The notes below the pieces were generated by a model. The model did not search any database, was not told the DNA's origin, and worked only from the letters and a program-made list of their open reading frames with translations. The translations under genes and the position numbers were made by a program. Shown piece after piece: positions 3,310 through 53,968 of a stretch of DNA of 64,000 nucleotides (positions are counted from its first letter, which is position 1; every line of letters begins with the position of its first letter). Source of the DNA: an uncultured Chloroflexia bacterium (lineage in GTDB: Bacteria; Chloroflexota; Limnocylindria; Limnocylindrales; CSP1-4); assembly GCA_963779375.1 (NCBI GenBank), contig CAVZXW010000010.1, positions 939 through 64,938 on the forward strand, written 5' to 3'.

Positions 3310-4314
3310 GTGACCACCAGGACGGCGCCGCCCGGGGCGGACGGTGCCCCGATCGAGCCCCGCGACGTTCGCGACGCCATCCTCGCGTGGTCCGCGGCGC
3401 ACGGGCGCGCTCTCCCGGGCCGCGAGGTTCGCGAGCCCTGGCGGGTGCTGGTCCTGGAAGTGATGTCGCAGCAGACGCAGTTCGACCGTTCGCTCGAGGC
3501 GGCGGCCGTGTTCTGCCGACGCTTTCCCGACCCCGCGGCCCTTGCCGCCGCGCCGGCCGCCGATGCGGTTCGGGCGTGGGCCGGGCTCGGCTACAACCGG
3601 CGTGCGCTCGCCCTGCGGGCCGCGGCCCAGCGCATCGTCGAGCGGCACGCGGGAGTGGTCCCGGCCACGCTCGAGGCACTTCACGATCTCCCCGGCGTGG
3701 GGCCCTACACGGCGCGCGCCGTCGCCGCCCGCGCGTTCGCCGCTCCGGTGATGCCGGTCGACGTGAACGTGCGGCGGGTGCTGGGCCGCGTCCTTGGTAC
3801 CGCCGGGTCCACCGCCCGAAGCACACGCGAGATCCAGGCATGTGCCGACGCGATGGCGGCTGCCGGCGGGGTGGCGGCCACCACCGGGACATCCGGCGGC
3901 ATCCATCCGGGCGATCTCGCCGATGCGGTGATGGACCTGGCGGTGGTTGTCTGCCGGCCGCGGCGCCCCGACTGCGGGGAGTGCCCTCTCGCGGCCCGGT
4001 GCCGCTGGCTGGCGTCGGGCGCAGCGACGAACGATGTCGCCGGTCCTGCCGCCTGCGCGACGGCAAGGTCGCGGCCGGGCGCCAGCCCCGCCGGGTTGCG
4101 CCCGAGCCCGGTGCCGTTCACCGCCACCCGCCGCTGGCTGCGGGGTCAGCTCCTCCGCGAGCTGCGCGACCTTCCGCCCGGCTCGTGGCTCGCGATCGAG
4201 GGTGACCGGGGGCCGCATTCGCACGCAGTCGTGCGCGAGACGGTTGCAGTGCTCGAGTCGGAAGGGTTCCTCGAGCTCGACACGCACGGTCGCGCGCGCC
4301 TGTCCGAGGGCTGA
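3310..4314 (+). CDS. mutY: HhH-GPD / 4Fe-4S DNA glycosylase, MutY-like
   Basis: EVMSQQTQ, GLGYNRRA, LPGVGPYTARAV and the Cys cluster CRPRRPDCGECPLAARC. GTG start. Confidence 0.8.
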   Translation: MTTRTAPPGADGAPIEPRDVRDAILAWSAAHGRALPGREVREPWRVLVLEVMSQQTQFDRSLEAAAVFCRRFPDPAALAAAPAADAVRAWAGLGYNRRALALRAAAQRIVERHAGVVPATLEALHDLPGVGPYTARAVAARAFAAPVMPVDVNVRRVLGRVLGTAGSTARSTREIQACADAMAAAGGVAATTGTSGGIHPGDLADAVMDLAVVVCRPRRPDCGECPLAARCRWLASGAATNDVAGPAACATARSRPGASPAGLRPSPVPFTATRRWLRGQLLRELRDLPPGSWLAIEGDRGPHSHAVVRETVAVLESEGFLELDTHGRARLSEG

Positions 4315-4338
4315 CGCAGGTCCAAGGGCTGACGCAGG
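4303..4338. repeat. 18-nt tandem duplication x2 spanning the mutY-like stop codon
   Basis: tccgagggcTGAcgcagg (4303-4320) and tccaagggcTGAcgcagg (4321-4338) are 17/18 identical. Confidence 0.9.
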
Positions 4339-4357
4339 CGCCCCAGCGACGGCGCTG

Positions 4358-5212
4358 CTACAGGTCGCGGCGCCGGAAGAGGACCACGGCGCCGGTCAGC
4401 AGGATCGCGATCCAGGCGACGACCCAGCCGAGCTCGGCGAGGGTTGGCGGACTGCCGGTGAACACCTCGTCGAACCCGCCGGCGCCCTGCCCGCCCGTCA
4501 CGCTCGCGGCGATGAGGGCCGCGGGCGCCTGGAGGCTCGACGCGACCCCGCGCCACAGGGCATCACTCGGAAGGACGAGCTGGCTGACGATGCCGGCCTG
4601 CGTGAGCGCGTCGATGTGCAGCACCGACCCGAACCTCGCCAGGATGCCGATCAGCCAGACGAGCCCGAAGAGGACCACCGCGACGGCACCGCCGGTCACC
4701 GCCGACATCCGCGTGCTGAGCAGCAGCGCGAGCGTCATCAGCACGACGCCTTCGACCGCCAGGTAGGCGACGGCACCGATCGGATCGGGCGGCACCCATC
4801 CCGTGAGCGCGGCGGTGACCGCGATCTCGAGCGCTCCGGACAGGGCCGCGTAGGCAATCACCAGTACCGCCAGCCCCAGCCACCTGCCCAGCACGAGATC
4901 CACCCGGCGAAGCGGGCGCGACAGGAGGCCCAGCATCAGCCCCGATTCGACATCCGCGGCCAGCGCGGGCGCCCCGAAGAAGACGGCCGTCATGGCGAGG
5001 ACGAAGCTGAACATGAAGGCCACGAGCAGCAGCAGCTGGGCAACGCCCAGCTGGATCTCCGCGTCGAGCAGGTGCCGCTGATGCGAGATCGCGACGACGC
5101 GCTCGAACCCCCACCCCGTGATCACCACGACGAGCACGGTCATGACGAGGAGCGCCCAGATCAGCCGGCGCCGCACGGCCTCGCGCAGGGTCAGGCGGAG
5201 AATCGTGGTCAT
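4358..5212 (-). CDS. ABC-2 type exporter permease
   Basis: The C-terminal 284 codons of ORF 4358..5869 are a polytopic membrane protein (MTTILRLTLREAVRRRLIWALLVMTVLVVV..). ATG 5212 overlaps the upstream ATPase stop (ATGA). Confidence 0.8.
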   Translation of the reverse strand: MTTILRLTLREAVRRRLIWALLVMTVLVVVITGWGFERVVAISHQRHLLDAEIQLGVAQLLLLVAFMFSFVLAMTAVFFGAPALAADVESGLMLGLLSRPLRRVDLVLGRWLGLAVLVIAYAALSGALEIAVTAALTGWVPPDPIGAVAYLAVEGVVLMTLALLLSTRMSAVTGGAVAVVLFGLVWLIGILARFGSVLHIDALTQAGIVSQLVLPSDALWRGVASSLQAPAALIAASVTGGQGAGGFDEVFTGSPPTLAELGWVVAWIAILLTGAVVLFRRRDL

Positions 5213-6159
5213 CGGGCATCCTCCGGCCGCCGCGGCGCGTGGTCGACGAGCTGCAGGAATTGGTCCTCGAGCGTGGCCTGCCCGGGCTCCACCGCGTACA
5301 CGCGGCCGCCCAGCCGGACGATCTCGGCGACCAGGTCGGCCACCTCCTCGTCCTTCGGCCCTTCGACCGCCAGCCACCCGTCCTCGACGGTCGTCCTGCC
5401 GAATTTGCCGAGGCCCGCCAGCTGCGCCTGGTCGAGCCCGGCCAGGCGCAGGCGCACGCCGGTGCTTCCGAGCAGCTCCTGGAGCCGGCCGCTGGCGACG
5501 ACGCGACCGTGATCGACGATGGCCGCGCGGTCGCAGACCTGCTCCACCTCGGTCAGCAGGTGGGAGTTCAGGAACACGGCGGTGCCACGCTCGCGCAGGT
5601 CGCGGATGATGGTGCGAACCTCGTGCCGGCCAACCGGGTCGAGCGCCGAGGTCGGCTCGTCGAGGATCACGAGATCGGGCCGTCCCAGCAGGGCGACGCC
5701 CAGCCCGAGGCGCTGCTGCATGCCCTTCGAGAACGCCTCGACCCGATCGTCGGCCCGTCCCTCGAGCCCGACCGTGCGGAGCGCCCCTCCGATCTCGTCG
5801 CCCCAGTCGGAACGGGGAAGCCGCGCAAGCTCGCAGTGGAGCGCAAGCACCTCGCGTGCCGTGAGCCACCCCTGGTAGCGGAAGAGCTCCGGGAGGTAGC
5901 CGACGCGCCTGCGCGTCGCCGCATCCCCCGCCGGCGCCCCGAGCAGCCAGGCCTCACCACCCGAGGGAGCCGCAAGCCCGAGCAGCAGCTTGACTGCGGT
6001 GGTCTTCCCCGCGCCGTTCGGGCCCAGGAAGCCGAAGACCTCCCCGCCGGGGACCGTCAGCGACAGGCCGGTCAGCGCCACGGTCGACCCGTAGCGCTTG
6101 GCCAGCTCCGTCGTGTGGATGGCCGGCGTCTGGAGACCCGGCCCGGCAACGGCCGTCAA
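5209..6159 (-). CDS. ABC transporter ATP-binding protein
   Basis: Walker A GPNGAGKTT, signature FSKGMQQRL, Walker B LVILDEPTSALD. Confidence 0.9.
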   Translation of the reverse strand: MTAVAGPGLQTPAIHTTELAKRYGSTVALTGLSLTVPGGEVFGFLGPNGAGKTTAVKLLLGLAAPSGGEAWLLGAPAGDAATRRRVGYLPELFRYQGWLTAREVLALHCELARLPRSDWGDEIGGALRTVGLEGRADDRVEAFSKGMQQRLGLGVALLGRPDLVILDEPTSALDPVGRHEVRTIIRDLRERGTAVFLNSHLLTEVEQVCDRAAIVDHGRVVASGRLQELLGSTGVRLRLAGLDQAQLAGLGKFGRTTVEDGWLAVEGPKDEEVADLVAEIVRLGGRVYAVEPGQATLEDQFLQLVDHAPRRPEDAR

Positions 6160-52933: not shown

Positions 52934-53301
52934 GGATCGGATCCCCTTTGGGCTACAGAGGTGATGACGACTCCGCTCCGGCACGGGGAGCGGCCTCCGC
53001 GTCACTACACCGCTAGGCTCCCTCCTCGACCTGGGGTCGCTGTCGGGCACTGGCCTGCGTTCGGCCGCTCGGTGGGACGCGAGTCTCGGTGGCGGGCGGG
53101 ATCGAGAAGCCGTGTGACTGGGATCGCGGTCGCACCCGCCACCGGGTGCATCAGAGTGGCTCGGCGGGAGGTCGGTGCCATCCGGGGCTCCCCGGAGCGC
53201 GGTACGGATTCGGCGCTCCGTACACGTGGTGACGCGCGTCACCGGCGGGACCGGGCGCGACCCGTAGAGACGAACCCGTACCCGGCTCCGTACTTCCCCC
53301 G

Positions 53302-53930
53302 ATGGCCGGCGAGGGACGTGCGCCCACCCTTGGGCCATGGAGCGCTCGGGCAGGCGTGCGGGAGCCGACGAAGCCGTTGACGCGGTGGGGTCCGGCGACG
53401 AGATTCGAAGCCGTGAACGAGATCGGGACCGGCGACAGGATCCGGGCCGCGAACCAGCCTCGCGGCGAACAGCCAGCCCGGGCCGGAGCATCGGTCGCGT
53501 TCCGCGATGCCGCGGAGATCGTGGCGCGCGCCGACGCGGACCAGGCCGAGGCGGACCGCGCGCGAAACCGGTTCCGCAGCCAGCCGATGCCAACGCTCGA
53601 ACCCGATGCGCGGATCGCTTCCCTGCTCGGCGACGGCGAACTGGTCGTCGCGGTGCGCCGCTCGGCGCTGCTCGACCGGCGGCAGCCCGGCCCGGCAGAG
53701 AGGCACCGGCCGGGATCGGCGGCGACCTCTACCTGACGACGCGGCGCATCGTGCTCGTCGGCTGGATGACGCTGGCCTTCGACCTGCGACGGGATCCGCG
53801 AGGTCATGCTGTCTGGAGAACGACTCCTGCTCGTCATGCCCGGCGGGCTGGGCGTCTCGCTCGACGTGGACCGGCCACGCCTGCTCAGGGTCGAGATCGC
53901 CGCCGCGCGCGCCGCTCGCCAGGGCGCTGA
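53302..53930 (+). CDS. hypothetical protein, possibly PH/GRAM-like (frameshifted; both ends uncertain)
   Basis: Across three frames: ..FRDAAEIVARADADQAEADRARNRF..IASLLGDGELVVAVRRSALLD.. / GDLYLTTRRIVLVGWMTLAFDL / MLSGERLLLVMPGGLGVSLDVDRPRLLRVEIAAARA. Confidence 0.35.
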
Positions 53931-53932
53931 CG

Positions 53933-53968
53933 CGGCCCTCAGGCCCGAGCCGGCCCTCAGCCGATTCG
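53933..53968. repeat. 18-nt period duplication (cggccctcag x2) at the convergent gene ends
   Basis: cggccctcag occurs at 53933-53942 and 53951-53960. On the minus strand this reads ..ggcTGAgggccg..gccTGAgggccg. Confidence 0.75.

Follow-up and report, generated by a model that had tools for sequence, protein, structure and literature searches.

Why do unrelated genes in one stretch of bacterial DNA end in short tandem duplications that carry the stop codon with them? This question is raised by 64,000 nucleotides (nt) from an uncultured Chloroflexia bacterium (Limnocylindrales, CSP1-4; contig CAVZXW010000010.1, positions 939 to 64,938), which were analysed at their full length and are called the window hereafter. 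The window is about 73% G+C throughout, and an initial annotation of it had proposed that seven of its genes end in a 2-3 copy tandem duplication with the stop codon inside the unit. Tandem repeats were located with Tandem Repeats Finder (TRF) and by direct reading of the window sequence, which together confirm this arrangement at six of the seven gene ends; the seventh, that of a NarL-type regulator, falls away for reasons given below. We consider it likely that these are locus-specific, minisatellite-like tandem duplications, and that local copying errors combined with a selection filter explain the pattern. As a by-product of known processes the phenomenon is to be expected. Two things exceed that expectation, namely a modest excess of long duplications in the lineage and the repeated duplication of one gene end. 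The six gene ends are the following.

4302-4338, plus strand: end of a mutY-like HhH-GPD glycosylase gene; 18 nt in 2.1 copies; stop TGA at 4312-4314
9925-9966, minus strand: end of a DUF1634 gene; 16-nt block CTACCGGATCAGGAAG twice with period 26; stop TAG at 9951-9953
24380-24492, minus strand: end of a Hydrolase_4 alpha/beta hydrolase ("lipase") gene; 34 nt in 3.4 copies; stop TAG at 24471-24473
27690-27773, plus strand: end of a PAS/HisKA/HATPase histidine kinase gene; 41 nt in 2 copies; stop TGA at 27704-27706, with TGA in both copies
33389-33489, minus strand: end of a gene for an unknown protein (33468 to about 34150); 50 nt in 2 copies at 82% identity; stop at 33468-33470
42721-42882, plus strand: end of an Abhydrolase_11 hydrolase gene; 61 nt in 2.6 copies; stop TGA at 42758-42760

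Stop codons inside duplicated units

All six loci consist of head-to-tail copies of one unit (TRF, ungapped repeat families), the first copy being the original end of the gene, conserved among orthologs. The further copies retain the stop to different degrees. The mutY-like unit keeps TGA in both copies, the second of which lies inside a 43-nt spacer before a convergent gene. Similarly, the DUF1634 block, which falls below the TRF listing score, has TAG in both copies, with the second sitting 10 nt downstream inside a 53-nt convergent spacer. Read copy by copy, the stop position is TAG, TAG and TGG in the Hydrolase_4 array and TGA, TGA and TGG in the Abhydrolase_11 array, which is located upstream of a conserved MarR promoter and continues as a degenerate remnant to about 42930. 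The distal copy of the unknown-protein duplication has CGA at this position, i.e. its stop has been lost. Pfam profiles reach the C-terminus in five of the six genes, and ortholog alignment places the stop codon at an identical position in relatives, such that the first stop is unchanged. The duplications therefore leave the proteins unchanged.

The periods of the six duplications are 18, 26, 34, 41, 50 and 61 nt, and only the first is divisible by 3. Within the unit the stop favors no particular site, with coding shares between about 0.2 and 1.0 (mean about 0.5). Consequently, neither in-frame backup stops nor a fixed breakpoint is indicated. All boundary cases in the window are at stops, with no repeat straddling a start codon. 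Short direct-repeat overlap (microhomology) at the duplication junctions is 5 nt at the perfect duplication at 28360-28412 and 0-2 nt elsewhere, the older copies being too diverged to read.

Whereas anatomy, selection filter, lineage-specific presence and turnover are shown by the data, we infer how the copies are made at the molecular level and that the additional ones are neutral. Tandem duplications of 14-61 nt would stem from local errors in the copying of very GC-rich DNA, probably through slippage during replication or through unequal exchange at short direct repeats. Such duplications would arise everywhere, with most of them removed by selection. Three kinds would survive: those that keep the frame in tolerant protein regions, those within unconstrained spacers, and those with a stop codon inside the unit, for which translation would end at the first stop and the extra copy would amount to added 3' non-coding DNA. 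Before duplication, the spacers that follow genes measure only about 25-100 nt, and therefore a tolerated duplication of 20-60 nt usually must include a stop. Once formed, arrays would keep expanding, contracting and being re-made in the manner of variable number tandem repeats (VNTRs).

A dispersed repeat family, like mycobacterial interspersed repetitive units (MIRUs) or repetitive extragenic palindromes (REPs), that inserts at gene boundaries is an exceedingly improbable source of these units. There is a superficial likeness to mycobacterial MIRU-VNTR loci, which are located where genes meet and extend over stop and start codons (PMC12548453). However, each unit in the window copies its local gene end, and an all-against-all repeat search of the whole window found no unit family common to the loci, only paralogous gene motifs.

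It is also very doubtful that the extra copies have been kept because they are useful, be it as backup stops in other frames, as tandem terminators or 3' untranslated region (UTR) structures, or as padding between packed convergent genes. This possibility draws on the stop being retained in the second copy in five of the six window cases as well as in the relatives L020, L026 and L029, on periods that are not multiples of 3 and so set successive stops in different frames (as in L026, with five TGAs at period 19), and on the persistence of an array at the Abhydrolase_11 hydrolase end in three genomes. At 6-18% divergence, however, chance alone would be expected to leave a 3-nt stop intact in the second copy, 1-2 of 10 periods are divisible by 3, which is near the random one third, and third copies have lost their stop (TGG). 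Most of the duplications are moreover missing from close relatives, and the units are neither conserved between genomes nor structured to excess. When the units were folded and compared with shuffles there was no excess RNA structure (z of -1.5 to +0.6) and U tracts were not seen; a clear hairpin occurs in one unit only, where it is strong and lies just after the stop of the Abhydrolase_11 hydrolase gene. The functional role that the initial annotation had left open, as backup stops or 3' structure, is thus opposed by the one-in-six share of in-frame periods and by these folding scores, and no sign of function was found in structure, unit conservation or in-frame stops.

Density and placement of tandem repeats

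The stop-straddling duplications belong to a larger population of tandem repeats, which we compared with shuffled and real DNA. Counts are of TRF repeats with a period of at least 10, given at successive minimum scores.

Window, 64 kb: 19 at a score of at least 50 (0.30/kb), 13 at 65 and 7 at 100
Dinucleotide shuffles of the window, 64 kb: 3.3 at 50 and 0.33 at 65
Unrelated bacteria, 215 kb: 5 at 50, 3 at 65 and 1 at 100
Thermomicrobium roseum megaplasmid, 67% GC, 50 kb: 9 at 50, 2 at 65 and 2 at 100
S. cattleya pSCAT, 73% GC, 200 kb: 59 at 50 (0.295/kb), 17 at 65 and 1 at 100
Relatives, 222 kb: 57 at 50, 27 at 65 and 13 at 100

The claim that repeat density exceeds chance holds against the shuffles at both scores for which they were counted. 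At a score of at least 50 the density in the window is 13 times that of unrelated bacteria, a baseline made up of contigs with distant homologs of the window histidine kinase, yet it equals that of pSCAT, a GC-matched Streptomycetaceae replicon. The short-repeat count is therefore normal for the base composition. At a score of at least 100 both the window (7 in 64 kb versus 1 in 200 kb, p=2e-4) and its relatives (p=2e-3) exceed pSCAT, with long, well-preserved duplications about 12-24 times enriched over this control. This excess is an unusual, if modest, feature at the level of the lineage, which carries unusually many long and young duplications. The description of the window as far from typical for a bacterial chromosome is therefore accurate for long, well-preserved duplications, but does not extend to short-repeat density or to the share of repeats at stops, both of which match the control.

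The selection filter is evident from the periods. Within genes 28 of 35 repeats have a period that is a multiple of 3, compared with 18 of 41 outside genes (p=0.002), and such frame-keeping therefore reveals a clear filter. Together with the stops kept in orthologs and the lack of a preferred stop position, this bears out the earlier interpretation of tandem duplication followed by selection.

Among non-coding repeats, those that straddle a stop make up 5/12 in the window, 7/29 in the relatives and 4/16 in pSCAT, with no difference between the three data sets. This similarity indicates that the stop bias is generic to high-GC genomes and that lineage-specific targeting is not needed. If all non-coding DNA were equally permissive, 0.7 stop-straddling repeats would be expected in the window, where 5 are observed (p=3e-4), as compared with 2.4 expected and 7 observed in the relatives (p=0.006) and 1.3 expected and 4 observed in the pSCAT control (p=0.04). 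A model in which only 3' flanks of at most 120 nt are permissive fits all three data sets (3.4, 10.2 and 3.8 expected; 5, 7 and 4 observed). Enrichment of repeat units over stop codons is present when measured against equal permissiveness, but the share in the window does not differ from that in pSCAT.

Turnover of gene ends in related genomes

The relatives come from Joint Genome Institute (JGI) Illumina metagenomes and MEGAHIT assemblies, and events of the same class occur in them. For example, L020 has 39 nt in 2.2 copies over the stop of an MFS ortholog, reading TGA and then TAA, while L026 has 19 nt in 5.5 copies at a gene end with TGA in every copy. L029 has 14 nt in 2 copies at a gene end and L023 has 19 nt in 3 copies with CTA in each unit. 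Comparable events in independent short-read assemblies make an assembly artefact unlikely and agree with the claim that the copies are real. Stutter or merged strain variants in the assembly or consensus would be a highly improbable cause of the pattern. Such an origin is suggested by several window genes that are frameshifted where the L040 and L041 orthologs are intact. This class of event is nevertheless present in independent Illumina assemblies from both JGI and MEGAHIT, the array at the Abhydrolase_11 hydrolase end occurs at the same stop in three separate assemblies, copies differ by substitutions, and periods inside genes respect the reading frame, unlike what is expected of an artefact.

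The MFS ortholog end has a tandem repeat of its own, at or just past the gene end, in each of four relatives:

L020, 1872-1958: period 39
L023, 11283-11374: period 19
L026, 11351-11404: period 27
L035, 1639-1871: periods 14 and 30

The window ortholog of this gene has no repeat and is followed 36 nt after its end by tRNA-Gln (23637-23711), the only match in Rfam and tRNA scans of the window.

Presence of the duplications is specific to lineages. They are young or turning over, and most are absent from close relatives or have been re-made there. The Hydrolase_4 gene end has three copies in the window versus one in L014. The close relative L042 lacks the additional DUF1634 copy although its coding flanks are about 97% identical, and the convergent spacer after DUF1634/rhodanese (53-67 nt) cannot be aligned between the window and L042. 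In-frame duplications in a GH25 gene are absent from L013, which lacks about 69 nt at that point. The kinase-end duplication is not detectably common to the 81%-identical ortholog locus in L013; a first reading of the alignment as a shared duplication was dropped after a shuffle test (p=0.11-0.8). In the spacer at 49879-49942 the window exceeds L041 by 77 nt, and a separate 22-nt repeat occupies this spacer in L040. Of the eight indels of at least 10 nt between the window and L040, two genomes that are about 90% identical, four resemble their own flank, so that local duplication is one of the main ways in which indels arise here.

As to the Hydrolase_4 region itself (24339-25354), L013 lacks the gene, with 1015 nt replaced by 58 nt, and L014 has an internal deletion of about 620 nt in it. 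Relatives are losing a gene whose end is triplicated in the window.

The end of the Abhydrolase_11 hydrolase gene provides the most detailed record of turnover. Arrays occur at the same stop in the window, L040 and L041, which are three separate assemblies about 90% identical overall, but the units are specific to each genome and the window has one unit more than the other two. The 3'-flank part of the unit is 85-94% identical within a genome and 34-80% identical between genomes, and copy 3 of the window resembles the L040 copies. This likeness within genomes, together with that of copy 3 to L040, points to an old duplication followed by separate re-duplications, which is turnover of the VNTR type.

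These observations on placement and turnover also bear on a different account in which gene 3' ends are mutational hotspots where duplications arise more often, rather than merely survive. Candidate causes would be terminator hairpins that stall replication, replication-transcription conflicts, or supercoiling between convergent genes. We regard this as rather unlikely. It would accommodate the excess of stop-straddling over equal permissiveness in all three data sets, the very short convergent spacers that contain three of the six duplications, and the separately homogenised arrays at the Abhydrolase_11 end in three genomes. The DUF1634/rhodanese spacer that is unalignable between near-identical coding flanks and the strong hairpin just after the Abhydrolase_11 stop would also fit. 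However, the model with permissive 3' flanks already fits the counts, there is no preferred stop position in the unit, and young perfect duplications are equally common inside genes, where all are in frame. Folding energies of the repeat regions are also no different from those of shuffles, and repeats are present in 5' and divergent spacers as well (16159, 56581). An extension of this account, in which the 3' ends of this high-GC lineage, and perhaps of high-GC bacteria generally, would be hotspots driven by the termination of transcription or replication, and in which minisatellites with stops, regenerated again and again, would act as all-frame stop and terminator buffers between crowded genes, is unlikely.

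Several points weigh against the explanation by copying errors and selection that we favor. Stop-straddling is 3-7 times commoner than it would be were all non-coding DNA equally free, and a filter therefore needs both the 5' regions and the long "non-coding" stretches to be constrained. Such constraint is here an assumption, and a mutational hotspot at 3' ends would yield equal counts. The presence of a separate version of the Abhydrolase_11 array in each of three genomes could mean hotspot recurrence rather than VNTR turnover. Furthermore, the gene maps behind the statistics come from an in-house caller that uses third-codon-position GC, the control is one replicon of 200 kb (pSCAT), and the window's own copies are known from the assembled contig alone.

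Other repeats, rejected loci and the neighbouring block

Further features of the window are listed below, those without orientation being marked unstranded.

1185-1305, minus strand: variable linker of phosphoenolpyruvate carboxylase (ppc); in-frame 54 nt (18 amino acids) in 2.2 copies
16159-16227, unstranded: divergent 5' intergenic region; perfect 23 nt in 2.8 copies, the unit containing the palindrome GTGCCGGCAC
28360-28436, minus strand: interior of a GH25 protein gene; perfect in-frame 24 nt in 2.2 copies and 9 nt in 2.9 copies
45330-45358, plus strand: hairpin after an MFS stop; palindromic TCCCGGGA cores with a 10-bp stem, terminator-like
49879-49942, minus strand: co-directional spacer; two adjoining 16-17-nt repeats in 2.1 copies
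56581-56627, unstranded: repeat at a junction with differing extra DNA in L040 and L041; 16 nt in 2.9 copies
61695-61718, plus strand: hairpin after the stop of an OmpR-type regulator; GAGCGC/GCGCTC within a longer GGCCC...GGGCC stem, terminator-like, z=-1.7

The initial annotation had grouped six further repeats with the gene-end cases. Four of these are recovered by TRF (1150-1299 within ppc, 16159, 49879 and 56581), while the two at 45330 and 61696 were rejected as duplications and are palindrome-based hairpins. The duplication in the ppc linker is the product of the same process as the stop-straddling cases, tolerated inside a gene. The array at 16159-16227 lies upstream of an ABC transporter (folding z=-2.1) and may represent either a set of operators or a duplication of very recent date.

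The proposed duplication at the NarL end (53933-53968, minus strand) was rejected, being a mere 9-nt repeat in which the TGA of both CTGAGGGCC copies is out of the GerE frame; the gene is frameshifted, and its GerE-domain frame has no stop until 53239. A 26-nt repeat at 54762-54815 looks like chance similarity inside a kinase domain. It was ruled out as the cause of the frameshift in that kinase, which is a single extra G after 'IGGEL' and is unrelated.

Additional genes are split between frames. These are ppc (1141-1352), an MFS gene (43023-45312), an ABC-2 permease gene (47444-48796), kinases at 31.4-32.9, 54.7-56.1 and 59.4-61.4 kb, and, besides the NarL-type regulator, an amino-acid permease, with frame-split regions at 31406-33318, 53239-56216, 59357-61369 and 61792-63850. 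Intact orthologs occur in L040 and L041, the differences being indels of 1-2 nt (for example one additional A at 44428, GC inserted at 48502 and the extra G near 54690), and the split genes therefore represent either consensus errors of a long-read assembly or recent pseudogenes. This issue does not affect the duplications under study.

Both syntenic relatives, L040 and L041, lack a block of about 5.5 kb (50758-56311), in which the window has the frameshifted HisKA_3 kinase/NarL-type regulator pair, a putative signal-peptidase-like gene and repeat-rich open reading frames. The repeat at 56581-56627 is exactly at a junction where the relatives have different extra genes. Elsewhere, two paralogous GH25 (lysozyme-like) genes at 27814-29274 and 45518-47437 lie in inverted orientation, are 72-78% identical over about 800 nt, and both end in a short convergent spacer. 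Three regions (18046-19368, 19700-20826 and 52034-53492) have no usual codon-position GC signal, no Pfam or Rfam matches and no strong tandem repeats. The nearest named relatives of the window histidine kinase, at 44-51% identity, are labelled as Chloroflexota metagenome-assembled genomes.

Relation to known repeat systems

Bacterial minisatellites and VNTR loci form by slipped-strand mispairing, and Achaz, Rocha and colleagues have reportedly surveyed the related "close direct repeats". The window duplications resemble minisatellites and VNTRs in their head-to-tail units of 10-100 nt, their variation between close relatives, their within-genome homogenisation and the multiple-of-3 periods inside genes. 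They differ from the usual VNTR focus in that the unit contains a stop codon and constitutes a fresh copy of the last codons together with the 3' flank. As in tandem ("backup") stops a second stop follows shortly after the first, but backup stops are in frame, whereas only one of six periods here is a multiple of 3 and the second stop arrives within a duplicated block. Tandem intrinsic terminators would have a hairpin above chance stability and a U tract in each unit, which is not the case here.

For annotation and comparative work it is relevant that about one in four, or more, of the non-coding tandem repeats in very GC-rich genomes extend across a stop. Spacers at 3' ends can be unalignable between genomes with 90-97% identical genes because they are rebuilt by duplication and deletion, and such loci are usable as strain markers for uncultured lineages. 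With stop-straddling above the level for uniformly free non-coding DNA in three independent data sets, hotspot versus filter is a question of genome-scale interest.

Our literature search found no prior description specific to stop-straddling duplications in bacteria, only general intergenic enrichment. Prokaryotic tandem repeats are enriched in the DNA downstream of stop codons as well as in that upstream of start codons, for which intergenic permissiveness is one explanation offered (Cho & Wright, Nucleic Acids Research 2025, PMC12418385). The window agrees with that survey in having tandem repeats more commonly in gene-adjacent intergenic DNA than inside genes; unlike the present analysis, the survey does not describe stop-straddling units or their turnover between relatives.

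The sole MIRU-like case seen at a stop/start junction is in L040 (18429-18491, window position ~40375), where a 21-nt in-frame repeat in 3 copies covers the overlapping stop of a GH42-like gene and start of an ABC ATPase gene; 42 nt of this repeat are missing from the window. MIRUs form a single family, dispersed and apparently mobile, whose members insert at start codons and have an open reading frame translationally coupled to the gene (PMC12548453). The duplications described here share with MIRU-VNTR loci short tandem units at gene junctions of a high-GC bacterium, variable copy number and overlap with stop or start codons, but their units are unrelated between loci and are placed at stops.

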